The notes under the pieces: generated by a model
What the model saw: only the letters and a program-made list of their open reading frames with translations
Databases searched by the model: none
What the model was told of the DNA's origin: nothing
In this document: positions 1,360-54,857 of the stretch, piece by piece
Layout: each line of letters opens with the position of its first letter
Position numbering within the stretch: position 1 is the first letter of the stretch
Virus record (IMG/VR): IMGVR_UViG_3300045988_021436
Coordinates: 1 to 54,857 of that record
Reading direction: 5' to 3' (one strand)
DNA: 54,857 bases
DNA from: a virus
Translations under genes and position numbers: made by a program

Positions 1360-1551
1360 CTACTTCATAAAAAATTCAATGTTTACATTGAAATAATCAG
1401 CAATCAATTTCAACTTATCTGCCTTTGGCGTGTATCGACCGTTTTTCCATTCAGACAGTGTTGCAGTTGAAACTCCTGTGTCTGTTGCAACTCGGTAAGG
1501 TGTTACCTTTTTCTCGTTGCACAAATCTTGAAACTTATCATAACTAAACAA
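1360..1551 (-). CDS. Cro-like Xre-family HTH regulator (63 aa)
   Basis: HTH segment GVSTATLSEWKNGRYTPKADKLKLIADYF. It is the first gene of the leftward operon and faces the cI-like gene. Confidence 0.75.
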   Translation of the reverse strand: MFSYDKFQDLCNEKKVTPYRVATDTGVSTATLSEWKNGRYTPKADKLKLIADYFNVNIEFFMK

Positions 1552-1578: not shown

Positions 1579-1607
1579 TTGACATTAACTAAGATTTCTT
1601 ATATAAT
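1579..1607 (+). promoter_or_regulatory. Rightward sigma-A type promoter for the cI-like gene (TTGACA-17-TATAAT)
   Basis: TTGACA at 1579-1584, a 17-nt spacer, and TATAAT at 1602-1607. The spacer contains the operator word CTAAGATTTCTTA. Confidence 0.7.
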
Positions 1608-1750: not shown

Positions 1751-2062
1751 ATGTATGAATTATTCCAAAAATTATTAGACGAAAAAGGTGTTTCTGCATA
1801 TGCAGTGGGAAAAGCAACAGGCATAAGCACCGCAACATTAACATCTTGGAAACAGGGGAAATATACGCCAAAGAAAGAAAATTTAAGAAAAATTACCGAC
1901 TATTTTGGTGTAGATAGAGATTATTTTGAGACAGGAGAAAAGTTTGGTTCTGTACCAACTTTCTCACCAGATCACATTGAATTAATTTCTGCATACGATA
2001 AATTGTCAAATGCGGATAAACTTGCTATAATGCAAATTATAAAAAGCCTAAGTGCTAAATAA
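1751..2062 (+). CDS. cI-like Xre-family HTH repressor (103 aa) with no S24/LexA-type peptidase domain
   Basis: The ATG at 1751 is preceded by taggaggg. The ORF-track start at 1730 is a TTG upstream of the RBS. The HTH GISTATLTSWKQGKYTPKKENLRKITDYF is nearly the same as the recognition region of the cro-like protein. Confidence 0.75.
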   Translation: MYELFQKLLDEKGVSAYAVGKATGISTATLTSWKQGKYTPKKENLRKITDYFGVDRDYFETGEKFGSVPTFSPDHIELISAYDKLSNADKLAIMQIIKSLSAK

Positions 2063-2077
2063 GAGGGAGGAATTTAT

Positions 2078-2788
2078 ATGGCATTAGTTAAATGTAAAGA
2101 ATGTGGAAAGGAAATATCTGATAAGGCTAAAACTTGCCCTAATTGTGGTTGCCCTATTGAGGATGAATTTGCAAAAACCGAAACCACGAAAGATATTCAA
2201 ACAGAACCGAAAAAGAATGAGAAAAAGAAAAATAGTAAATTAAGTACCATTGCGGCAGTGTTGGCATTTTTTACTGTAACTTCTCCGATAGCGTTTGTGG
2301 TAGCAATAATTGACTTGCTAAAAAGAGATAAGGAACACAAGCATACAGGCTCATGGTTCGCAATCATCTTCTTTATTGCACTTTTTTGGTTATTTAATGA
2401 CAATAAAGACAGTTCGTCAAGCAATAACTCAAAATCAGAAATCCAAGTAAATAAATTGCTTTGTGAAGATGAAAACATATCCGTGTATCTTGACCATATA
2501 GAAAACGGGAAAATTTACGTTAAGTATGTTAATCATTCAGACGAAAATAAAAATGTGTGCTATTCAGACTTAACTATAAATGGAACACGATATTATAAAG
2601 GGATATTTGTTCAAGAAGTTTATTCAAATGACGATTATATACAGAAATTAGATTTGTACGATAAAGAGGGAAACAAAGTAAATTACAACTACGAAAGCGG
2701 AACAATTTTAGGAAAATTTGAATACGCTGGTACAGGAATTAGTCTTATTGAGGAATTAGAGTTTAAAGAAACGGATTTTAACAAATAA
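2078..2788 (+). CDS. Zinc-ribbon membrane protein co-transcribed with the repressor (possible lysogen-expressed exclusion or moron gene)
   Basis: N-terminal CKECGKEISDKAKTCPNCG zinc ribbon, two hydrophobic segments (LSTIAAVLAFFTVTSPIAFVVAIIDLL and WFAIIFFIALFWLF), and the RBS agggagg. Confidence 0.5.
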   Translation: MALVKCKECGKEISDKAKTCPNCGCPIEDEFAKTETTKDIQTEPKKNEKKKNSKLSTIAAVLAFFTVTSPIAFVVAIIDLLKRDKEHKHTGSWFAIIFFIALFWLFNDNKDSSSSNNSKSEIQVNKLLCEDENISVYLDHIENGKIYVKYVNHSDENKNVCYSDLTINGTRYYKGIFVQEVYSNDDYIQKLDLYDKEGNKVNYNYESGTILGKFEYAGTGISLIEELEFKETDFNK

Positions 2789-2962: not shown

Positions 2963-2991
2963 ATTATAGAACATATGTTCTTTCTTGTCAA
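2963..2991 (-). promoter_or_regulatory. Perfect consensus promoter on the minus strand (TTGACA-17-TATAAT)
   Basis: Reverse complement of 2986-2991 is TTGACA, the spacer is 17 nt, and reverse complement of 2963-2968 is TATAAT. Confidence 0.8.
2968..2981. promoter_or_regulatory. LexA binding site (Firmicute Cheo/SOS box, GAAC-N4-GTTC) within the promoter spacer
   Basis: AGAACATATGTTCT is a perfect 14-bp palindrome with GAAC at 2969-2972 and GTTC at 2977-2980. Confidence 0.75.
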
Positions 2992-30746: not shown

Positions 30747-30780
30747 GTAATCACTTCCCTTTCTTGTTGATAGTGTTACT

Positions 30781-31271
30781 ATAACACGTTATCGTTATAT
30801 TGTCAACAAGAATTTTCAACTTTTATAAAAATGGACAATCTTCCTTTCCTTCTTGGCTTTCTAACTCTTCCAGACGATCAAGAACACATTTCGTAATGAA
30901 ACCATTTAGACTATCTCCCGCCGCTGATCTTATGCGCTCCTCGTCTGTCTTCTTAAATCTAACAAGCGTTTTGAAATATGCTTTTTCTTCATATTTGGAA
31001 GTGGCTCTAATATGCGCCGCTGATGTTTTTTTCTTTTCTTCCATGCTCTCTTCCTCCTATATAATGATATCGTGATTTACATTTAACACGATATCACAAT
31101 AACGCTATCGTGTCAACATATAACAACTTTCCTATATAATGATATCGTTATTTTCCTTTCAAAATTTTCTACCAATAATCCAAACTGTGCAATATGTACA
31201 ATAGATATAACGTTATCGTGTTATTATTTGTGCAACATTGGGGTATTGCGTATATAACGTTATCGTGTTAT
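30781..31271. promoter_or_regulatory. Array of at least 7 copies of a TATCGT/ACGATA-containing operator word flanking the RHH gene
   Basis: Exact 20-bp repeat atataacgttatcgtgttat at 31205-24 and 31252-71. Exact 18-bp repeat cctatataatgatatcgt at 31056-73 and 31131-48. Inverted pair acacgata...tatcgtgt at 31086-31112. A further copy ataacacgttatcgttat at 30781-98. Confidence 0.8.
30823..31044 (-). CDS. Ribbon-helix-helix (Arc/CopG-like) DNA-binding protein
   Basis: ...SAAHIRATSKYEEKAYFKTLVRFKKTDEERIRSAAGDSLNGFITKCVLDRLE shows a beta-strand-helix-helix pattern and is surrounded by repeated operator words. Confidence 0.55.
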   Translation of the reverse strand: MEEKKKTSAAHIRATSKYEEKAYFKTLVRFKKTDEERIRSAAGDSLNGFITKCVLDRLEELESQEGKEDCPFL

Positions 31272-31274
31272 AGT
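31246..31274 (+). promoter_or_regulatory. Promoter of the plus-strand operon, with an operator in the spacer
   Basis: TTGCGT (31246-51), a 17-nt spacer, and TATAGT (31269-74). The spacer is the 20-bp operator repeat. Confidence 0.55.
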
Positions 31275-31337
31275 TAATACATCGAAAGGAACAAACAACA
31301 AACCGGATTACCGGAGAATAAGAAAGGGGTTTTAACC

Positions 31338-31457
31338 ATGAAGAATTATAAAGTATATGTAAAAGGAATGTACACAGGAGAAATCGAACTACTTGCAAGC
31401 GAAGTTGTAGCAGTTGAAAGAGATTTCGAGATTAAACTTGTAGAAGTAAGCAAATAG
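31338..31457 (+). CDS. Small protein (39 aa)
   Basis: MKNYKVYVKGMYTGEIELLASEVVAVERDFEIKLVEVSK with the RBS gaaagggg. Confidence 0.4.
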   Translation: MKNYKVYVKGMYTGEIELLASEVVAVERDFEIKLVEVSK

Positions 31458-31595: not shown

Positions 31596-31928
31596 ATGAG
31601 AAAATTAACAATTGCAGAGAAAAGAGAAAACGCTGTTATCGAGTTAGCAAGCCGTACAAATGGTAACATAGCATCAGCAAGAAAGGCAATGAATGCCTAT
31701 TATAGACTTTGTGGGTTAGAAGAAAGACTATTAATTCTTGAGAATGACGAAAGAACTTGTAACACTCCATACACAAGATCATTACAGGAGAAAGAAGAAA
31801 GAACCATCGAAAGAGTTAAGGGATATTTCAAAGAGTTCAACGCAATTCTTGTATGGTTTGGATATCTTCCGACTATTTGCGAGCCAGGAACCACACAAGA
31901 TTTATACCTGGCACATTTCTACAACTAA
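31596..31928 (+). CDS. Hypothetical protein (110 aa)
   Basis: ATG after aaggtgg. The ORF track starts 3 codons earlier at a GTG. Confidence 0.5.
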   Translation: MRKLTIAEKRENAVIELASRTNGNIASARKAMNAYYRLCGLEERLLILENDERTCNTPYTRSLQEKEERTIERVKGYFKEFNAILVWFGYLPTICEPGTTQDLYLAHFYN

Positions 31929-31975
31929 GCAAGCGCAGACGGTACGGCTCCGGGGTTCAAATCCCCGGCTTGCTT
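31928..31975 (+). ncRNA. tRNA-like acceptor/T-arm minihelix (no D or anticodon arms)
   Basis: AGCAAGC (31928-34) pairs with GCTTGCT (31968-74). An internal CGGGG-TTCAAAT-CCCCG forms a canonical T arm. The element overlaps the stop codon of the upstream gene. Confidence 0.45.
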
Positions 31976-32599: not shown

Positions 32600-32659
32600 T
32601 TCCAGGGCGTAAAATCATTCCGATCATTTTCTCGTTTCGCGAGATTGGTAGCCGTTTTT

Positions 32660-32695
32660 TTCTTGCTATGCAAGAATAATATTTTGTGGTTTATT
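32660..32695 (+). terminator. Intrinsic terminator of the plus-strand operon
   Basis: TTCTTGC-tat-GCAAGAA (32660-76) followed by a T-rich tract. Confidence 0.6.
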
Positions 32696-32800
32696 TTTAT
32701 TTGTTTTTTAAATAGGCAACCCGTAAGCCTATTATTATCTAAAAATCGAAATTTAGGGCGAAATACGACCTTGTAGCGGTATTTTCTGCCCGTCTGCACC

Positions 32801-32829
32801 TTGACAATTTAACACTACCGGAATATAAT
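32801..32829 (+). promoter_or_regulatory. Perfect consensus promoter (TTGACA-17-TATAAT) with no ORF downstream
   Basis: TTGACA at 32801-06 and TATAAT at 32824-29. Confidence 0.75.
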
Positions 32830-32835
32830 AGCGTC

Positions 32836-33207
32836 AAATAATCCCCTATGTGCTTGTTCCTTTCGATCGTGTACAATCACATACAGGATTTCATATCGGC
32901 GCACTAGGTCTATCTATTGGGCGTTTTTGTCGTGCTTATGATTACGCACGAAAGCACCCGGATAGACGGCTGCCGGATATGTGGCAGATCACACGACCGC
33001 ACAACGCTTTTCACTAAAAACTTCGTCAAAGAGTGCTTTATCTTCACACGAAAAATTCGATTCACTTTTTCAAGTGAAATCTGCAAAAATCGAGCAAAAA
33101 TTTCCAAAATTTTCAATCTCATATTTGGTGTAAAATTTTAAACACAGGGGGGGTTCAAATTCTGTCGGAATATTTTTCGTGGCGGCAAAATTTTTTATTT
33201 TTTTACG
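32836..33207 (+). ncRNA. Candidate non-coding transcript of about 370 nt from the orphan promoter
   Basis: There is no ORF with an SD. Stems include CTGCC/GGCAG (32963-32980) and TTCACTT/AAGTGAA around 33064-33085. The region ends in a long T-tract at 33191-33204. The 3' end is uncertain. Confidence 0.35.
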
Positions 33208-33335
33208 TTCATTGCTCCAAATATCAACGACTTAGCCGCATATTCGCTTTTGCTTAATTCTTCAACCAATTTCTCCCTTGTCATTTCTGGATTAGTCTTT
33301 TGTATATACAATAATATTTCATCTACTCTATCCAT
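33195..33335 (-). CDS. Small protein (46 aa)
   Basis: Its ATG overlaps the upstream stop (ATGGATAG). It is below the ORF-track cutoff. Confidence 0.35.
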   Translation of the reverse strand: MDRVDEILLYIQKTNPEMTREKLVEELSKSEYAAKSLIFGAMNVKK

Positions 33336-33654
33336 ATCTTTTCTCCATAACATTACTCATAATACTATCAGCAATATATATAATATCTCTGCCATATAGC
33401 GACATAAAATCTGCAATTATTTCTTCTGTCTGTATATCTATATTGCAGTTATTTTCAAAGCTATAAACGTGTACCAACTCATGGCACAACACCTTGTTTG
33501 TCATGTAATCAGACATACCGTAAGCAATTGTTACCGTCTTGGTGTTGTTGTCGGTAACACCTAGTGTATATACATTGTCACTGCGTCTTAATTCTTCACT
33601 ATTCGGGCTTGCAAACTGCAACGTCCACCGGTTGTTATTTACTGTAAATTTCAT
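33328..33654 (-). CDS. Small HExxH zinc-metallopeptidase-like protein
   Basis: The CHELVHVYSFEN motif in a 108-aa protein. Confidence 0.45.
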   Translation of the reverse strand: MKFTVNNNRWTLQFASPNSEELRRSDNVYTLGVTDNNTKTVTIAYGMSDYMTNKVLCHELVHVYSFENNCNIDIQTEEIIADFMSLYGRDIIYIADSIMSNVMEKRYG

Positions 33655-33703: not shown

Positions 33704-34342
33704 TTACTGAATTTTTTGCATCAAAATCTGCATTTTTGTTCTTAAAAGGTTCTTCTCTTCGTCAGACATATCCGATACCATTTCAACTACATCTTCCGTA
33801 AGAGACTTTGCATACCTTTCCAACTCCTGCATTTTAGCTTTCTTATCTTCCGGTGTATTACCTCTGTGCATTTCCTTTGTCTCTGTGTATGTTCTCTTTG
33901 CACGATCATATCCACTCTCATTCATGTTGGTTTCCGTGTAATACATTCTGCTATGCGTATCTCTATCCATGTCACGGTACATTTCCGGTGTCATGTGATA
34001 ATATGGCGGTTCTTCGTATCCTCTTCGGTATGATCCATGCCCTTTTGGTGCAAATCTTCCACTTGCATATCTGTAGTGATCATAGTATCTTCTTCCGGCA
34101 TCTTCTCCGTACTCTTCTTTCAGTTCACGAAGCAAAATCTTTTCGTACTCTTCTTCCTCTTCATCAGCTTTTTTCATAGCCTTTACGATTACCGCTTTAT
34201 ACTCTGCTTCGTTAAGGTCTTTAATCATATCTACCACTTGTCCCATTTCGCAAGTGTCAACATTTTCTGTGCCTTTTTCAAGTTCACATAATGCTTTTTC
34301 GGTTAGACATTCAATCATTTTGTGCATTCTTTCAATGTGCAT
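33704..34342 (-). CDS. Hypothetical acidic, Tyr/Arg-rich protein (212 aa)
   Basis: ORF with low-complexity segments EEEEEYEK and RRYYDHYRYASGRF...YRRGYEEPPYYH. Confidence 0.5.
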   Translation of the reverse strand: MHIERMHKMIECLTEKALCELEKGTENVDTCEMGQVVDMIKDLNEAEYKAVIVKAMKKADEEEEEYEKILLRELKEEYGEDAGRRYYDHYRYASGRFAPKGHGSYRRGYEEPPYYHMTPEMYRDMDRDTHSRMYYTETNMNESGYDRAKRTYTETKEMHRGNTPEDKKAKMQELERYAKSLTEDVVEMVSDMSDEEKNLLRTKMQILMQKIQ

Positions 34343-34353
34343 AACATCACCCC

Positions 34354-34776
34354 CTACGCTTCACGAACCGCAATCAAGTTAGCATTTTGCACTTCAATAG
34401 CTTGCGTAGAAGTATTCTGTACCGCTACTGTACTGCAACATCCGCAAGGTACATCAATGTATGCCTGTGCTGATACGTTAAAGAAATTTTCTACTGCTGC
34501 CGGTGTAACAATCATTCTTGTTGACTGCAAAGGCTCACCATCTACCGCAAGCGCAAGTGAGATAGCTTCAACCGTACCGCCTGTTGGTATCTGAATATTT
34601 CCACTAAACGATACAAGAAATCTTGCTCTGCACTGGTTTGTAATACCTCTTAACTTGACAATTCCACTTCCCTGTCTATGAACAATACATTTGCTACCGC
34701 CCACCGGTGTTTCTGTTAATGCAACATCTTCTCCGGCTGCAACTGTTTGTAATGTAATTCCTGTAAATTCTGCCAT
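34354..34776 (-). CDS. TNF/C1q-like jelly-roll protein resembling BclA-C-terminal-type spore-surface domains (weak call)
   Basis: The beta-strand periodicity of GIVKLRG...ARFLVSFSGNIQIPTGG...ISLALAVDGEPL...YIDVPCGCCSTVAVQNTS..IEVQNANLIAVR supports the fold. The start was chosen at the ATG after gagaggt. Confidence 0.35.
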   Translation of the reverse strand: MAEFTGITLQTVAAGEDVALTETPVGGSKCIVHRQGSGIVKLRGITNQCRARFLVSFSGNIQIPTGGTVEAISLALAVDGEPLQSTRMIVTPAAVENFFNVSAQAYIDVPCGCCSTVAVQNTSTQAIEVQNANLIAVREA

Positions 34777-34905
34777 TTTATTTACCTCTCTTTCAAAAAA
34801 TAAGGGCAAACATATTTCAGTCTGCCCTTTTGCTTACAAGTAATACCGCTTTTGCAGACATAATCGAGTTAAACTCAATTAAGATACTCAATTATTCTGT
34901 TGTAA

Positions 34906-35661
34906 TTAGCATCCGCAACTCTGGTTGCATCCGCATCCATAAGCGTATGCATTTGGATTTGGAACAACATATGCCGGGATTGCTGGTGGGTTTACAGCAT
35001 TGATAATCTGGCTTGTCTGCGCTGTCATTGCAGTAGTCAAAAGTGCGTTCTGTCTATCCTGTGATGCAGCGTGTCTAAGATCGTTGTTCTCTGCCTGTAA
35101 TGTTGCAATCTTATCCTGGCACAAATAATCTAAGATACTACGTGTGCTATCCGCAATTGCCTGTCTTGTCTGGCAAGCCTGTGTAGCCATATTGTAGTTA
35201 GTGTCGGCAAATCCTCTTTCGATCTGTCTCTGTGTTTCACAGCAACATGAAGCGTTCTGTGCCGCCATGTTGGTAAGCGTTGACTGAATGGCATTTGTGT
35301 TCTGCATTCCACTTACTGTATCAGCGTTGATTGCCTGCTGAATACCAAAGCCGGTTTGCAGAATATTTGTGTTGATACCATTCATCTGTGCTAACTGATC
35401 GTAGCCGAGACTGCAAATACCATTGTTGATACCATCAAGCTTTGAAACAACCGCCTGATTATCAAAACCTCTCTGAATTGCCGCATCGGTATAACCATTT
35501 CCGGCACCGTTACCGCCCCAGCCATTACCGCCGAAGCCTCCCCATCCGAAAATCAAGAGAATGACAATCCACCAAGCACCATCGCCCCACATGCCATCGT
35601 TGTTTCTGTTGTTGCCCGTTACTGCCGCAATATCGGCAAGGCTTACTCCGTTGTTAAACAT
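34906..35661 (-). CDS. Membrane-anchored Gly-rich / Gln-Asn-rich protein with a Cys-rich C-terminus
   Basis: WWIVILLIFGWGGFGGNGWGGNGAGNG, an internal CCC, and a C-terminal YGCGCNQSCGC. Confidence 0.5.
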   Translation of the reverse strand: MFNNGVSLADIAAVTGNNRNNDGMWGDGAWWIVILLIFGWGGFGGNGWGGNGAGNGYTDAAIQRGFDNQAVVSKLDGINNGICSLGYDQLAQMNGINTNILQTGFGIQQAINADTVSGMQNTNAIQSTLTNMAAQNASCCCETQRQIERGFADTNYNMATQACQTRQAIADSTRSILDYLCQDKIATLQAENNDLRHAASQDRQNALLTTAMTAQTSQIINAVNPPAIPAYVVPNPNAYAYGCGCNQSCGC

Positions 35662-35743
35662 ATTAGTTTACCTCCATTTGTTTATTTACAAATAGGGAAC
35701 CGTGGTTTTTGTTGTCCGGACAAAACCCTAATATGTACTAGAT

Positions 35744-35971
35744 TTATCTAAACATTTGCTTTATTTCGCTCATGCTTAAACCATTTTCGCCCATAAAATT
35801 ATTAAGTGTCTGCTCTACGCCTGCCATGTTTCCAGACTGGATATTCTGCAAAATTCCGTTTGCCATTTGATTTCCTTGTCTTGCTGCATTCTGTAATACT
35901 TGCATAGCTGCCTGTTGCGGATTTCTGATTGATTTTAACTGATTGATTGCTTGTATCATCTGCTGATTCAT
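35744..35971 (-). CDS. Small Gln/Asn-rich protein (75 aa)
   Basis: ORF. Its stop overlaps the upstream stop/start region. Confidence 0.45.
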   Translation of the reverse strand: MNQQMIQAINQLKSIRNPQQAAMQVLQNAARQGNQMANGILQNIQSGNMAGVEQTLNNFMGENGLSMSEIKQMFR

Positions 35972-36498
35972 TATGCTTCACCTCCGCTTGCATCATCTTC
36001 AACCAACTTTTGGCTAGTTTTAGATTTAGTCGAAGATTTAGTTAAGGATTTAGTCAAAGATTTTTCATCAATTTTCTTCTCCAATTCGTCTATCTTTGAA
36101 AACAAGGTATCAAAGTGTTTCTCAAATACATCTGTAACGTTCTCTGATAGGTCAATTTTCAATTTTTCTGTTTCTGACGATAACTTGTTAGGGTTATCTG
36201 CTAAAACAGGCTTAAAAACGCTTGTAGAGATTTTCCCGTCCGTTCCCCATTGTTTAGCATAAATTTCCGACAAGTCACTTTTAGGGAAGAATGCAACTGC
36301 ACCATTCATAGGTACATCACTAGGAATTATATTTTCTGCGTCCTGTACCACTTTACCAAACAACCCGGATTGCATTTGAAACTCCTGTTGAGGTTGATAC
36401 CTCTGCTGCATATTTCCTATTTGGTTGTATTGATATGCCGGATATTGCGGCATATAACTATTCATCTGTTGCTGATAAGGATTGTTGTTTATATTCAT
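35971..36498 (-). CDS. Protein with a Q/N/Y-rich N-terminus and a KSLTKS-repeat tail
   Basis: MNINNNPYQQQMNSYMPQYPAYQYNQIGNMQQRYQPQQ.... The ATG follows ggagg. The ORF track starts at an upstream TTG. Confidence 0.5.
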   Translation of the reverse strand: MNINNNPYQQQMNSYMPQYPAYQYNQIGNMQQRYQPQQEFQMQSGLFGKVVQDAENIIPSDVPMNGAVAFFPKSDLSEIYAKQWGTDGKISTSVFKPVLADNPNKLSSETEKLKIDLSENVTDVFEKHFDTLFSKIDELEKKIDEKSLTKSLTKSSTKSKTSQKLVEDDASGGEA

Positions 36499-36616
36499 CT
36501 TCGTATTCCTCCATTGATCTTTCAATTGCGTGTACTACCCTTGATTGTGTTTCACAATCCAATTCTTGTAATTCTGGCTTTGCAAAAATAATTGATAACA
36601 ATTCATCCGAAAACAC
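36458..36616 (-). CDS. Possible small leader ORF (52 aa, GTG start)
   Basis: A GTG 7 nt after aaggagg. The ORF overlaps the next gene by about 40 nt. Confidence 0.3.
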   Translation of the reverse strand: MFSDELLSIIFAKPELQELDCETQSRVVHAIERSMEEYEDEYKQQSLSATDE

Positions 36617-36702: not shown

Positions 36703-36738
36703 CAAAAAAATAACACCTCAAATTTCTTAGGGTGTTAC
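36703..36738 (-). terminator. Intrinsic terminator T1 downstream of int/attP
   Basis: Minus-sense UAACACC, a 13-nt loop, and GGUGUUA, followed by seven U. The stem is built from the arm-repeat word. Confidence 0.6.
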
Positions 36739-36951
36739 CTTAGGTGTTACCTCCACTCAAAACTAAAGATTATAAGCACCATTCAAATTGCTCCTTTCTT
36801 TAGTAAATCCAAGTGTTTTATAGTATTCAGTTAAAAACTAAAAGTAGTAGCGGAAGGGAGATTCGAACTCCGTACAAAACCCCGTTTTCCCCTTTAAAAT
36901 CAAGGCTTTCAGCAATCAACAAGGTGTTACTTCGTGTTGCTTTTGTGTTAC
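36711..36951. repeat. GGTGTTAC-type repeats flanking the att core (candidate integrase arm-type sites)
   Basis: GGTGTTAC at 36731-38, 36743-50 and 36923-30. Variants GTGTTGC at 36934-40 and GTGTTAC at 36945-51. An inverted TAACACC at 36711-17. Confidence 0.6.
36846..36872 (-). other. attP core candidate: copy of a tRNA 3' end (T loop plus 3' acceptor strand)
   Basis: Minus-sense GGAGTTCGAATCTCCCTTCCGCTACT. There is no matching 5' half, so this is not a tRNA gene. It lies 80 bp downstream of the integrase stop. Confidence 0.55.
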
Positions 36952-36953
36952 TT

Positions 36954-38186
36954 TTATGCCATTAACGCTTCGTTGATAGCTTTCGCTATTTCTTTGTCTG
37001 ACTTATTCAGCTTGTAATAATATCTTCTTGTTGTTTCTATGTCTGAATGCCCCATCTGGTCTATGATAACACTGTCCGGCACCTTTGCATCTATTAGCTT
37101 TGTTCCATATGTCGTTCTTGCCTTGTGCATTGATCTGTATTCAATACCCACATTGTCGCATATGACATATAGTTTTCTGCTAAACGCTTGCGCCTTTACT
37201 CTCTTTCCGTTTTTGCAAAACACCCATTCCCCAAACGGATTCATTGATCGAATTTTTTTAATTATCCGTATTGCTTCATCCGTCAGAACAACTTCCCTGT
37301 ACCCGGCATCCGTTTTTGGTAATTCTTGTCTCTCAAAAACATATCTTCCGTCTTCGCCACGGTATCTAACCTCTGTACCAGAAACAGAAATATATTTTGG
37401 GTAAACATCTTGCCATCTTAATGCTGCTATTTCTCCGGCTCTCAAACCGGTTTGAAATGCTAATGCAATCCCAAGTCCAATTATTGTTGGGTTTTCCATG
37501 ATAAAACTTTCCACCATTTTTTCTTCGTTTGAGAAAAATACTTTTTGATGCGGGTTTATCATTACCCTCTTAAATGACCGGTTGGATATGTCTAAGTCTC
37601 CCATGAAATTTGTTATGCTTAAATCTGTGTAACCATGTTTTTTCGCATACTTCCAAATTCCGTTTATTAAAATCCGCATATCTCCGTATGCCTTGCTTGT
37701 CAATTCCAAATCAGCAATCGTGACTTTTATAAATTCTTCCAGTGTATCTTCACCAATGTATTTGATTTTCTTATCCGCAATCGGAATTGATTTGTTTTCA
37801 AAAAACCTCTTGAAATTTGTGTGGTATTTATCATTTGTCTGTGGTGTTATCTCTTTCAGCCTTAATTTGTTTTCAATCCACATTCGGAAAACATCTGAAA
37901 CATAAGGTTCTTCTTCAACAGACTTATAATAATCCACTATTGCACTATTCAACTCCTCTTTTGCATTTCTCCTTATCAACCTCTTTCCTCTTTTGGCTTT
38001 CTGGTCTGGGATGTATGTATAATACTTTCCGTCTTTGCCTTGCCAAATCTTGTGTTCGTGTTGTTCTAAAAATTTTTTTCTTTCGCTCATTTCGATATTT
38101 TTTTGAATGGTGCTACGGTCAATAATACCATTTTCAATTGCATATTTCAACAGGTCACTGTCTGATATTTCTTCCACCAACATCAC
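36954..38186 (-). CDS. int: Tyrosine recombinase / phage integrase (410 aa)
   Basis: ...GLRAGEIAALRWQDV..., ...HKARTTYGTKL..., ...MGHSDIETTRRYY match the catalytic R...H-x-x-R...Y boxes. The N-terminus is SAM-like. Confidence 0.9.
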   Translation of the reverse strand: MMLVEEISDSDLLKYAIENGIIDRSTIQKNIEMSERKKFLEQHEHKIWQGKDGKYYTYIPDQKAKRGKRLIRRNAKEELNSAIVDYYKSVEEEPYVSDVFRMWIENKLRLKEITPQTNDKYHTNFKRFFENKSIPIADKKIKYIGEDTLEEFIKVTIADLELTSKAYGDMRILINGIWKYAKKHGYTDLSITNFMGDLDISNRSFKRVMINPHQKVFFSNEEKMVESFIMENPTIIGLGIALAFQTGLRAGEIAALRWQDVYPKYISVSGTEVRYRGEDGRYVFERQELPKTDAGYREVVLTDEAIRIIKKIRSMNPFGEWVFCKNGKRVKAQAFSRKLYVICDNVGIEYRSMHKARTTYGTKLIDAKVPDSVIIDQMGHSDIETTRRYYYKLNKSDKEIAKAINEALMA

Positions 38187-39681: not shown

Positions 39682-39868
39682 CCATCAATTCTTCGTAACA
39701 ATCCATGCAGTAATCTTTTCCTCCGACACATTGAAACTCTGTTTTATCTTTCGAAGTGTAACCACACTCGTCACATTCCCAAATGTAATAATTTCTGTTT
39801 CTGCCACAATTCATACATGTTTCACGTCCAACACAATCATTTTCTCTGTAACTAGCCATTGTTTTCAC
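39659..39868 (-). CDS. Small Zn-ribbon protein
   Basis: CMNCG...CDECG...CMDC. Confidence 0.4.
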   Translation of the reverse strand: MKTMASYRENDCVGRETCMNCGRNRNYYIWECDECGYTSKDKTEFQCVGGKDYCMDCYEELMDDIGSGR

Positions 39869-40496
39869 CGCCTAGCACTAACTTCTTCCGGCACTCATCA
39901 ATTGCATTTGATATTTCATTGAAATCCTTTGTCTTCTGCTCTATCACATTTGGCAATTCTGCAATTGGTTCTTTCTTCTCGATCTGCACAGTTGGAATGC
40001 TGCTAATCAATTTCTTAACATCTTCCGGCATCTTTGTGTATTCTTCATCCCTCTTAACTGCCGTTCTGTAACTCCGCAAAAAATTTGATTGGATAACCGT
40101 TGACACCTCGTTGCTATCACTCATAGCCCACCGTTTAATCATGTCAGCACTACCGACCGCTTTCTGAACTATTGGTGGAAGTTTTTCAAATTCTTCTACC
40201 GAACCATAGTTGCCATTCCCGATTGCTTTTCTCACTAACGACCACGCTTCCATTTCTCCTAACTGCTCTTGCACTGTGCATTTCTGAATAAGTGATATAA
40301 TCTGACCAATACTGCAAGCAAATCCGCTAGTGTCTGTTGCTATGTACGTTCGCAATGCAGTTTCAACAATTTTGTAGTCATAATCCTTTAGCATGATGTA
40401 CCATGTATTTACCGCCACTGATTTGTCCGGTATTTTGTAATTTGGGAATGCTGCCTGTATCATCATCAACAATTGCTTTGTTTCATCTCTTGTCAT
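39852..40496 (-). CDS. G39P-like replicative helicase loader
   Basis: MTRDETKQLLMMIQAAFPNYKIPDKSVAVNTWYIMLKDYDYKIVETALRTYI matches the N-terminal domain pattern of SPP1 G39P. The start is at TAATG, overlapping the upstream stop. Confidence 0.55.
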   Translation of the reverse strand: MTRDETKQLLMMIQAAFPNYKIPDKSVAVNTWYIMLKDYDYKIVETALRTYIATDTSGFACSIGQIISLIQKCTVQEQLGEMEAWSLVRKAIGNGNYGSVEEFEKLPPIVQKAVGSADMIKRWAMSDSNEVSTVIQSNFLRSYRTAVKRDEEYTKMPEDVKKLISSIPTVQIEKKEPIAELPNVIEQKTKDFNEISNAIDECRKKLVLGGENNG

Positions 40497-41317
40497 TAAG
40501 CATCCCTCCATTCGTCAAATACCGTCTTCTCTTTCTTTGCAGTTACTTTTTGGTTCAAATAGCTTTCAAACTTTGTACCAAACAGTGTAGCCGGTCTTAA
40601 ATACTTCTCCTGTTCAGTTCCAATCCATTCGGCAGACTTTTTATCAATCACCGTAAAGAAGTCATCCTTTGTGTAGCCATCTCTTAATCTTGCCCTTATG
40701 TGTTTCTTACTGTCTGCCGTTGTATGTTTATATCTAGTATTACACTTAGTATTTAAATAATCTATAATATCTTTAATAATATCTATATCTTTAGTATTAT
40801 TTATATTATTTACTGTATCTCTATATATACTATTAACAGTATCAGATACAGAATCAGAATCAGTATCAGAATCAGTATCAGAAACAGATGTTACCATAGG
40901 GTATGCATACCCTATCGGTAAAACACCGTTCCTTATTGAATTTACTACGTCTAACACGTATTTCTTAAAAGATTCACTCTTAATAAACTGTGCTACTTTT
41001 TCAACTCCTGTTAATACCTTTTCCGATCTGCTCCAATTGTACTTGTGCCAATTAAGAATCAAAACTTCTTTGGTTGAAGAATCAAACTTGATTACGTTGT
41101 GAGCCTTATCAAATCTTTCTAACAATCTGATAATAGTTTCCTTGTTGTAACCAGTCTGCCTTGTCATCTGTGAGTAACTAACTTCATAGCAACCGCATAT
41201 ATTAGTTTGTGGATTGGTAAGCAAATATAAATAAAAGTATTTATCTTCCGGTGTAAAGTCATCCTCAACCTTATTGTCAGTCCAAAACGATAACTGTACA
41301 TTTCTATAAATTGCCAT
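40496..41317 (-). CDS. Phage replisome organizer (DnaD-like, with the conserved phage C-terminus)
   Basis: The N-terminal MAIYRNVQLSFWTDNKVEDDFTPEDKYFYLYLLTNP and the C-terminal IIDYLNTKCNTRYKHTTADSKKHIRARLRDGYTKDDF...LRPATLFG both fit the family. Confidence 0.8.
   Translation of the reverse strand: MAIYRNVQLSFWTDNKVEDDFTPEDKYFYLYLLTNPQTNICGCYEVSYSQMTRQTGYNKETIIRLLERFDKAHNVIKFDSSTKEVLILNWHKYNWSRSEKVLTGVEKVAQFIKSESFKKYVLDVVNSIRNGVLPIGYAYPMVTSVSDTDSDTDSDSVSDTVNSIYRDTVNNINNTKDIDIIKDIIDYLNTKCNTRYKHTTADSKKHIRARLRDGYTKDDFFTVIDKKSAEWIGTEQEKYLRPATLFGTKFESYLNQKVTAKKEKTVFDEWRDA
40841..40886 (-). repeat. Short tandem repeat (atcaga/atcagt hexamers) encoding an SDTDSDTDSDSVSDT linker
   Basis: Read directly. 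It lies in frame inside the replisome organizer gene. Confidence 0.8.
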
Positions 41318-54564: not shown

Positions 54565-54857
54565 ACCTCCACAAATTCACCATCTACCAATTTATAAAAT
54601 GTGTCTTCCTTAATGCGCTCTCCGTCTACATACTCTGTCTTTACGCATTTAGGGATATAAATTCTATATCCTCTTTCGTCCTTTTCTCCTGTGCCAACCC
54701 ATTCAGCAAGAGTAATCCAACTGCCAACCTTTGCCTTTGCAATAGAATTATATCCGGCAGCCATAACAACAGAATTTTTACCTTCCGATACAATCTTTGC
54801 GGAATCTCCACTACTGCCAATCTGTGCGGAATATCCACTACTGCCAATCTGTGCGTA
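54555..54857 (-). CDS. 3' part of the junction-spanning repeat protein (continuation of 548..1)
   Basis: The frame is open from the window end. It reads ...IGSSGYSAQIGSSGDSAKIVSEGKNSVVMAAGYNSIAKAKVGSWITLAEW...EFVEVCK*. Bases 54823-54857 duplicate 1-35. Confidence 0.7.
   Translation of the reverse strand, partial: YAQIGSSGYSAQIGSSGDSAKIVSEGKNSVVMAAGYNSIAKAKVGSWITLAEWVGTGEKDERGYRIYIPKCVKTEYVDGERIKEDTFYKLVDGEFVEVCK
54823..54857. repeat. 35-bp direct terminal repeat identical to 1-35 (signature of circular closure or assembly overlap)
   Basis: tgtgcggaatatccactactgccaatctgtgcgta occurs at both ends. Confidence 0.95.

Follow-up and report, generated by a model that had tools for sequence, protein, structure and literature searches.

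What is made from an exact-consensus promoter that fires into DNA without a recognizable gene? The question is raised by a locus at positions 32801 to 33207 of the IMG/VR virus record IMGVR_UViG_3300045988_021436, which was analyzed over its whole length of 54,857 nt (the window). The window represents the complete genome of a temperate phage (~54.8 kb, 37% G+C), and a 35-nt terminal overlap at the window ends shows the contig to be circular. Nearly all of its genes are carried on the minus strand, and the locus faces two of them, here called p52 and p108. The best explanation of the comparisons presented here is that the locus is a putative self-contained noncoding RNA gene, found across temperate phages of human-gut Clostridia/Lachnospiraceae. 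Its outline is as follows.

32657 to 32679, plus strand: intrinsic terminator of the upstream 197-aa cargo gene, found by a terminator scan and marking the 5' boundary of the module.
32801 to 32829, plus strand: promoter of the sigma-70/sigma-A type, with TTGACA at 32801-06, a 17-nt spacer and TATAAT at 32824-29 (12/12 consensus positions).
32836 to 33200, plus strand: putative noncoding transcript of ~365 nt, with a predicted start 7 nt past the -10 hexamer and a predicted end in the U tract.
33195 to 33654, minus strand: converging genes p52 and p108, the last genes of the operon proximal to the phage attachment site (att).

The initial annotation had described the promoter as an exact consensus match, and both its sequence and its coordinates were correct. 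Three sites with 12/12 matches occur in the window, and sites with at most one mismatch number nine compared with 0.8 expected; the phage therefore uses host-type consensus promoters. Relatives of the locus were collected by a search with p108, which yielded 80 viral, 4 genome and 80 metagenome contigs, and an exact-protein look-up added 10. The related sequences come from human-gut metagenomes and from metagenome-assembled genomes labelled Lachnospiraceae or Clostridia; among GenBank phages there was no DNA match, and p108 found only three distant, unannotated protein matches. The noncoding stretch was seen to form the sequence families W (the window, L027, L108, L109 and L188-L197), G2 (L002-L026 and others) and G3 (L028-L081 and others), plus a few variants.

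The conservation looked for among these relatives was found. The arrangement TTGACA-17-TAnnnT is present at the same place in 123 of the 136 distinct related loci with sufficient sequence, with 34 different spacers. Among the promoter-bearing loci the -10 hexamer is TATGAT in 78, TATTAT in 41 and TATAAT in 4; three further loci have one-mismatch versions at the same position, and all 13 additional W-type loci carry the promoter as well. It is always convergent with p52 or p108, from which it lies 372-614 nt away. Because the hexamers are kept in so many loci while the spacers differ, the promoter is, judged from the alignments, functional and long selected, its hexamers and 17-nt spacing being under purifying selection. 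This conservation is the strongest single result of the analysis. The unit that follows the promoter recurs in more than 130 related phages and is apparently highly expressed.

It had also been noted that no open reading frame (ORF) preceded by a Shine-Dalgarno (SD) sequence lies downstream of the promoter. This observation held: 32830-33194 contains no credible ORF, and the listed ORFs of 55-74 aa have no ribosome-binding sites. The 74-aa (plus-strand) and 70-aa (minus-strand) ORFs, which had been regarded as unsupported, do not stay open in close relatives, where indels of -1, +2 and +21/22 nt interrupt them. Within-family alignments of the noncoding stretch contain indel lengths of 1, 2 and 21-23 nt, no block of the two larger families shows a 3-nt periodicity of nucleotide diversity, and candidate start codons are not conserved, a minus-strand ATG of G2 being ACG in most sequences. 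With frameshifting indels and no codon periodicity, small ORFs were rejected on both strands; a conserved small protein had been named as an observation that would overturn the noncoding reading. The element shows no compositional strand bias, its GC skew being -0.05, compared with +0.21 to +0.28 for the neighboring genes on their sense strand. Taken together, a selected promoter that fires into ORF-less sequence against converging minus-strand genes strongly supports a predicted noncoding transcript.

The second line of support is the modular architecture of the unit. Between families, BLAST aligns only the promoter and the parts near p52, and the same architecture is shared everywhere: a terminator, TTGACA-17-TAnnnT, 370-610 nt of ORF-less sequence, and the 3' end of p52. 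In G2 and G3 relatives an equivalent terminator immediately precedes the promoter, and the cargo genes upstream vary among otherwise near-identical phages, being swapped freely up to this pre-promoter terminator. On the other side, a cassette with a ribbon-helix-helix (RHH) gene and an HNH endonuclease gene lies between p52 and the element in L148 and L180, and a different cassette does so in L161. In all three the whole element is kept, from the promoter through the G run and the next AU palindrome, and abuts the inserted minus-strand gene. Since the element is intact beside cassettes and the genes upstream of it are swapped, it forms a discrete module whose 3' end is defined and lies near the p52 stop codon. 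Host contigs of 129-233 kb that contain prophages likewise carry it intact, at an unchanged distance between promoter and p52. In G3, the region from the promoter to +40 has a column identity of 0.95, and a 110-nt AT-rich block reaches 0.91-0.97, whereas p108 reaches 0.863 at its third codon positions in these genomes.

The RHH+HNH cassette (L148 3425-4443, L180 3425-4444, L123 2153-3199) sits at a precise insertion point, with p52 on one side and the 3' end of the element on the other. One of its two genes is RHH-like, codes for 56-57 aa and has a promoter of its own, TTGCAA-N17-TATAAT/TATTAT; the other encodes an HNH-type endonuclease of 249-268 aa. Occurring in both G3-type and G2-type phages, the cassette looks like a mobile homing cassette. 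The G2-type L123, a 3.7-kb contig, has the 3' domain of the element only and no promoter in the available stretch.

Four parts make up the unit: a 5' segment that is conserved, 22-23-nt repeats in varying number, a conserved AT-rich 3' domain with a G run, and a U tract that includes the p52 stop codon. In the window they are placed as follows.

32836 to 32916, plus strand: conserved 5' segment, nearly invariant in 11 distinct W-type sequences.
32983 to 33001, unstranded: single partial copy of the 22-23-nt repeat unit with consensus CAGATCACACGCCACGACCGGAT; the insertion point lies after 32991.
33010 to 33195, unstranded: AT-rich 3' domain with 69% A+T, common to all families.
33061 to 33078, unstranded: hairpin TTCACTT/AAGTGAA; one relative has TTTACTT, a U-G pair on the plus strand.
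33142 to 33164, unstranded: G-run motif ACACAGGGGGGGTTCAAATTCTG, conserved in W and G2, with a GGGGG core in every family.
33162 to 33205, plus strand: terminal hairpin (33162-33185) followed by the U tract, CAAAA-U6-A-U7.

The 5' segment folds locally with z = -2.5, and its pairs are not kept by relatives. In family W, one repeat copy is present in the window, L188, L192 and L197 and two or three in the others, and L109 has additional AGATCA-containing units and a mosaic insert; the distances from promoter to p52 of 418, 440, 461 and 522 nt in W arise because the copy number varies. G2 elements contain 5-6 dispersed AAGATCAG...CCGG units, all in a single orientation and confined to the element, and G3 elements contain CAAGCCGT units with a tandem expansion in L077. 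Across families, the AT-rich domain comprises the last 170-200 nt (66-73% A+T) and is the most widely shared part. It holds GAAATC/AAAATCGA words, and its run of 5-8 G leads into (T)NTCAAAT(T)TC; the G-run motif of relatives has a run of 6-8 G, with TTC changed to TATC or TGTC. A near-perfect CodY-box-like sequence, AATTTTCAGAAAACT (14/15), lies in the most conserved block of G3 (L029 5584-5598), and a 13/15 match is found in G2 (L025 4028-4042). The CodY box was rejected, the window element having no match at up to 3 mismatches. Bent DNA through phased A-tracts was rejected as well, the spectral peaks being inconsistent (6 to 14.5 nt).

The downstream RNA had further been described as structured, and this part of the initial annotation fared less well. 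The whole transcript folds with z = -3.4, but the opposite strand reaches z = -3.5. The words of a proposed long-range helix are present (GCGTT/GTCGTG at 32921-35 and CACGAC/AACGC at 32992-33007), but the helix itself does not stand out (z = -1.3; 20 of 200 shuffles fold as well), and AACGC is AACGA in most relatives with no compensating change. The hairpin enclosed by it also has its words in place (CTGCC 32970-74, GGCAG 32983-87) but is not conserved, several relatives having AGCAG or GACAG; L196 shows one compensatory change from G-C to U-A. The words TTCACTT and AAGTGAA exist, at 33061-67 and 33072-78. A word said to occur three times, AAAAATCGA, is found exactly only twice (at 32741, which is upstream of the promoter, and at 33085), plus AAAAATTCGA at 33051. 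The word GGGGGGGTTCAAAT lies at 33147-60, but does not behave as a T loop: ARAGORN reports no tRNA, and relatives have GTATCAAAT or GTGTCAAAT with a G run of 6-8. The long T tract abutting the minus-strand genes is real but partly p52 coding sequence, the U tract being the complement of the last two p52 codons and its stop codon (Lys-Lys-stop).

Comparison of relatives did not restore the structural argument. The 3' part of the transcript folds with z = +0.2. RNAalifold covariation terms were -0.87 kcal/mol for 25 G2 sequences and -3.4 kcal/mol for 45 G3 sequences, with two compensatory pairs each; an exhaustive helix scan of the sense strand turned up no helix in which even two pairs covary, and the observed covariation was reached in 178 of 500 shuffle trials. 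The covariation sought among relatives was thus not above background in either family. A column-shuffled alifold control gave a marginal hint in G3 (z = -2.0 for sense, +0.27 for antisense) and no fold signal on either strand in G2. When pairs from minimum-free-energy folds of the window were followed through ten W-type sequences, 15 pair-states were kept and 24 broken on the plus strand, and 16 kept and 29 broken on the minus strand. The terminal hairpin is the sole part that tolerates change in an RNA-like, plus-strand manner: all three substitutions in its 3' arm are C/U exchanges opposite G, wobble-compatible in the plus-strand RNA only. This and the compensatory change in L196 are the only positive signs of structure. 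The hairpin has -6.5 kcal/mol and z = -1.0, and a strict terminator scan did not accept its tail; together with the U tract it is a plausible, putative weak intrinsic terminator, and the haplotype of L189, L191 and L194 has a better U6GC...GCA6 hairpin ahead of the U tract. A good-looking fold with a significant z-score is not evidence of RNA structure at this locus. Of the proposal that a noncoding transcript is made, the core stands through the conservation of the promoter and the ORF-less unit, whereas the argument from RNA structure falls, there being no covariation and no strand specificity, and the helices being broken. What supports the locus is the conservation of the promoter and the modular build of the unit rather than RNA structure.

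What, then, might the transcript do? The reading that we favor, at a probability of roughly 0.35, is that a promoter-driven noncoding RNA acts as a cis-antisense or convergent regulator against read-through of the att-proximal operon. Given the selected promoter, host RNA polymerase would very probably start near 32836 and would transcribe ~365 nt in the window, and up to ~600 nt in relatives, through the 5' segment, the repeats and the AT-rich domain with its G run. Transcription would then stop leakily at the weak hairpin and the U tract overlapping the p52 stop codon. Transcripts of the minus-strand operon should in turn run into the unit, because the operon lacks one that would end them: within the window and the G2 and G3 representatives, no intrinsic terminator, in other words no intrinsic terminator for p52/p108 was found between the p52 stop codon and the promoter, nor a canonical one for the element transcript between the promoter and p52. 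Wherever the two overlap, the plus-strand RNA would be fully complementary to operon read-through and to the 3' end of p52, and polymerase collision together with RNA duplexes would limit the minus-strand operon and adjust how much p108 and p52 is made. The convergence would also shield the plus-strand block from minus-strand transcription, and the repeat array may modulate the antisense effect by serving as a platform for binding. The element has its own promoter and is convergent with its putative target gene, as an antisense RNA should be, and the model explains the orientation, the strength of the promoter and the lack of terminators.

Several known systems resemble this arrangement in part. 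Prophages encode cis-acting antisense RNAs of 77-220 nt that overlap the 3' end of their target, such as lambda OOP against cII, and RatA/txpA and SR4/bsrG of Bacillus prophage regions. Like OOP, RatA and SR4, the element has its own strong promoter, is convergent to a coding unit, has its predicted 3' end at the 3' end of the opposing gene and belongs to a temperate phage. Unlike them, its predicted RNA is 365-600 nt long, its demonstrable overlap with the coding part of p52 does not exceed ~10 nt if neither transcript reads through, it has a variable repeat array and no strong terminator, and p52 is no membrane toxin. In coliphage 186, transcriptional interference occurs between the convergent promoters pR and pL, 62 bp apart. 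There too, a temperate phage has a strong promoter pointed at an opposing unit, but the promoter of the element faces the 3' end of an operon of several kb rather than a promoter 62 bp away. Units of this kind, noncoding, driven by a promoter and opposed to a converging operon of a temperate phage, are known, and the sequence family is undescribed.

Some observations weigh against an antisense role. Both ends of the RNA are inferred from sequence, and the terminal hairpin is weak (-6.5 kcal/mol, z = -1.0). A purely cis-antisense role leaves the conserved internal blocks and the repeat array unexplained. The unit is intact where cassettes of 1-2 kb part it from p52 (L148, L180, L161), although even then a minus-strand gene faces it. 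L133 and L135 have kept the 3' domain alone, directly behind a plus-strand protein gene and without a dedicated promoter, and G2 has no fold signal on either strand. Among the functions offered at the outset (small RNA, antisense regulator, decoy) none is provable here, and the antisense and decoy or sponge functions are the two leading readings at the RNA level.

The second of these, a trans-acting RNA, is possible, although we consider it unlikely. Here the reiterated 22-23-nt units (AGAUCA...CCGG; CAAGCCGU in G3) would titrate a nucleic-acid-binding protein or a small RNA of the phage or the host. RNAs with reiterated units that act as protein sponges or antitoxins are known from CsrB/RsmZ and from the type III antitoxin ToxI, and with these the element shares a strong promoter and short reiterated units whose number varies between relatives. 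Consistent with such a role, the module is discrete and survives the cassettes that part it from p52, its strong promoter is conserved, its conserved blocks have no coding signal, and the repeats number from 1 to 3 or more in W and 5-6 in G2, besides the tandem expansion in L077. However, the element differs from CsrB/RsmZ and ToxI in that no toxin gene follows on the same strand, the units do not lie in conserved hairpins and the unit sequence is family-specific, which is odd for a sponge of a host protein. There is also no covariation or conserved secondary structure and no canonical terminator, a single copy is enough in the window, L188, L192 and L197, and no conserved complementarity to other phage regions was found.

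A function at the DNA level, which the initial annotation had not considered, is rather improbable. In this case the locus would be a transcription-activated, origin-like site, in which an iteron-like array and an AT-rich unwinding region are combined with an inward promoter, or another protein-binding DNA array. The SPP1 origins oriL and oriR are iteron origins, the second copy lying distant from the initiator gene. Like SPP1 oriR, the element has direct repeats of about two helical turns beside an AT-rich stretch in noncoding DNA far from the organizer gene; unlike SPP1, its unit shares only ATCAGA with the 12-mers of the organizer gene, and it occurs in phages without a detectable organizer homologue. 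The layout of an iteron or transcript-primed origin is found, with direct repeats beside an AT-rich region, an inward promoter and no ORF. The tandem 22-23-bp units vary in copy number, the adjoining domain has 66-73% A+T with a conserved G run at its boundary, and the fold potential is equal on both strands with no RNA covariation.

The closest published parallel for such a site is the origin of c2-type lactococcal phages. In Ceduovirus (c2-type) phages, the origin has a conserved promoter and a noncoding transcript, PE1, and three origin types exist with >~87-90% identity within a type and little similarity between types (PMC7150918). Families that are conserved within, barely alignable between, and united by a common promoter with no ORF or ribosome-binding site are seen here as among the c2, bIL67 and 923 origin types (PMC7150918). 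The likeness thus covers a conserved promoter followed by sequence without ORF or ribosome-binding site, several sequence types and an AT-rich context. However, c2 is virulent and has its origin between divergent early and late modules, whereas the present phage is temperate, the element lies at a convergent junction, and the phage has an initiator gene of its own with internal repeats.

Those repeats are among several points that speak against an origin. The DnaD-like organizer gene contains them at 40760-40888 and 41054-41099 (an 18-nt AT-rich unit x2.2, a 12-nt unit, CAGTATCAGAAT, x4.4, and a 23-nt unit x2), and a position within the initiator gene is usual for the origin of this type of organizer. 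The organizer 12-mer and the repeat unit of the element have only the ATCAGA noted above in common. The contigs with an organizer homologue include none of 110 G2/G3 contigs that bear the element; the element is therefore not linked to the replication module. The element also has no DnaA box and no consistent A-tract phasing, and in the window it has a single repeat unit. A fork moving in the direction of the promoter would meet nearly all transcription head-on, and a constitutive origin would be harmful in a prophage.

We give a similarly small chance to the absence of any dedicated RNA function, the unit being either a boundary insulator or collision zone, or a relic of a moron cassette that hitch-hikes with p108/p52. 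It lies exactly where plus- and minus-strand units converge, the single such point in this part of the genome; the cargo upstream is swapped freely up to the terminator; and, taken as a whole, the G3 element (identity 0.867) matches third codon positions (0.863). The hexamers that stay invariant over 34 spacers and the blocks at 0.91-0.97 identity argue, however, for selection beyond hitch-hiking, as does the retention of an intact module after cassette insertions. Cutting across these readings, it is conceivable, at odds clearly below even, that the unit represents a new family of gut-phage noncoding RNAs without a stable conserved fold, in which the repeat array and the G-run/AU-rich tail are the active parts and serve as a decoy or sponge for a host or phage nucleic-acid-binding factor, or else, no less unorthodox in a temperate phage that has an initiator already, the priming transcript of a second, host-driven, c2-like origin.

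A small protein or a known element (small ORF, tRNA-like RNA, attP or Rfam family) is effectively refuted: the ORFs of 55-74 aa were listed mechanically and GGGGGGGTTCAAAT resembles a T arm, but the frameshifting indels, the lack of periodicity, the negative ARAGORN and Rfam results, an attP located elsewhere and the integrity of the element in prophages all contradict it.

Individual candidates were rejected on the following grounds. With Rfam 15, the only window matches at gathering score were two tRNAs, both elsewhere, and at E<=10 none lay inside 32836-33200; the Rfam scan suggested for the locus thus returned no family, and the relatives L025 and L029 gave only far-sub-threshold, chance-level matches. 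Upstream of the promoter, a weak PreQ1-riboswitch-like match was seen at 32695-32737 on the minus strand (20.2 bits compared with a gathering score of 39, E=0.5); it falls on a hairpin at 32711-32733 between the cargo terminator and the promoter and is probably due to chance. For a tRNA or T arm ARAGORN found nothing, the flanks GGGGG and TCTGT pair poorly, and the loop in relatives is TATCAAAT or TGTCAAAT. The attP region lies at 36720-36960 on the minus strand, just downstream of the integrase gene, and contains a tRNA 3' end, GGAGTTCGAATCTCCCTTCCGCTAC, at ~36845-36885 and flanking GTGTTAC direct repeats at 36726-36752 and 36924-36955; the provirus contigs L020, L025 and L026 begin exactly at the homologous tRNA fragment. 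The element is thus not attP, which is at ~36.85 kb beside the integrase, and it is unsplit in integrated prophages. A diversity-generating retroelement template, a retron or a CRISPR-like repeat was dismissed, the element having no repeat elsewhere in the window. Type I toxin-antitoxin function was rejected, p52 being a hydrophilic three-helix protein and not a small hydrophobic membrane toxin, and so was a type III (ToxIN-like) system, there being no plus-strand gene downstream and no PADLOC hit among the neighbors. A trans-antisense target at 31281-94, with 14-nt complementarity to 32854-67 (E=0.11), was discarded, the match being absent from the closest relative.

The genes facing the element complete the picture of the operon that it would regulate under the antisense reading. 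The gene p52 spans 33195-33353 on the minus strand, its conserved start probably being at 33335 and its stop codon at 33195-97, and it overlaps p108 (33328-33654, minus strand). The product of p108 resembles an HExxH metallopeptidase (phrog_1233; weak DUF6782/M78 matches). That of p52 is predicted to be a soluble three-helix bundle (pLDDT 81), is hydrophilic with a maximal 15-residue Kyte-Doolittle mean of 0.56, and has no significant fold match for its predicted structure. A role as DNA binder or toxin was rejected for it, the only sign being a faint winged helix-turn-helix hint in one homologue (E=0.16). The operon starts directly after attP with genes for proteins of 184, 251, 151 and 212 aa, followed by p108 and p52, and PADLOC and NCBIfam scans of the neighboring genes found nothing. 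The proteins encoded at 33704-36525 on the minus strand are unusual and belong to no family beyond PHROGs of unknown function: the 251-aa protein (phrog_16490) has a GWGGFGGNGWGGNG stretch and a Cys-rich tail, the 151-aa protein is phrog_20016, and the 212-aa protein is acidic and rich in Tyr and Arg. They are possibly lysogenic-conversion or surface proteins.

Elsewhere in the window, the tyrosine integrase gene lies at 36954-38186 and the genes for the DnaD-like replisome organizer and a helicase loader at 39852-41317; a DNA methyltransferase, RecT and an SbcC-like protein are also encoded, and a single-stranded DNA-binding protein (SSB) gene and two tRNAs lie within 26.2-27.2 kb. The region 1360-2991 is the probable lysis-lysogeny switch, with a CI/Cro-like pair at 1360-2062. 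It comprises an XRE-type helix-turn-helix (HTH) gene of 63 aa (1360-1551, minus strand), a CI-like XRE HTH gene of ~103 aa (1752-2062, plus strand) and a zinc-ribbon/membrane protein gene of 236 aa (2078-2788, plus strand). The second perfect promoter of the window is found here (1579-1607, plus strand), as is the third (2963-2991, minus strand), which drives a 35-aa ORF with a good SD sequence; a bidirectional terminator lies at ~2790-2822. A 27-nt tandem repeat, TGTGCGGAATCTCCACTACTGCCAATC, with ~9 copies in total, spans the window ends (1-172 and 54791-54855).

A second control region is located at 31055-31275, where the operator-like word ATAACG(C/T)TATCGTGT occurs in three copies; another copy lies inside a minus-strand promoter at 30778-30806. 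The region is divergent, with a 73-aa RHH-like gene (30823-31044, minus strand) on one side and the plus-strand block (39-aa ORF at 31338) on the other. Between the 113-aa and 197-aa genes, a tRNA-like minihelix is present at 31927-31975 on the plus strand. It has a 7-bp acceptor-like stem, AAGCAAG/CTTGCTT, around a perfect T arm, CCGGG GTTCAAATC CCCGG, and neither a D nor an anticodon arm; ARAGORN makes no call, and Rfam gives a weak mascRNA-like match (E=3.2). The minihelix is kept in G2 and G3 relatives, is read as GVRVPGLLLP in spurious ORFs, and has a cleaner counterpart adjoining p52 in L105. It may be a processing signal for RNase P/Z and is not the attP core.

Gut Clostridia harbor abundant temperate phages whose regulation is almost unstudied. 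Here a sharply delimited noncoding unit is present in well over a hundred human-gut phage and prophage sequences, where it sits between an att-proximal accessory operon and a cargo hot spot. With a single promoter and a predicted product of 365 nt, it is an easy target. If the unit does control the operon or titrate a host factor, it would provide a handle on the behavior of these prophages in their lysogens.

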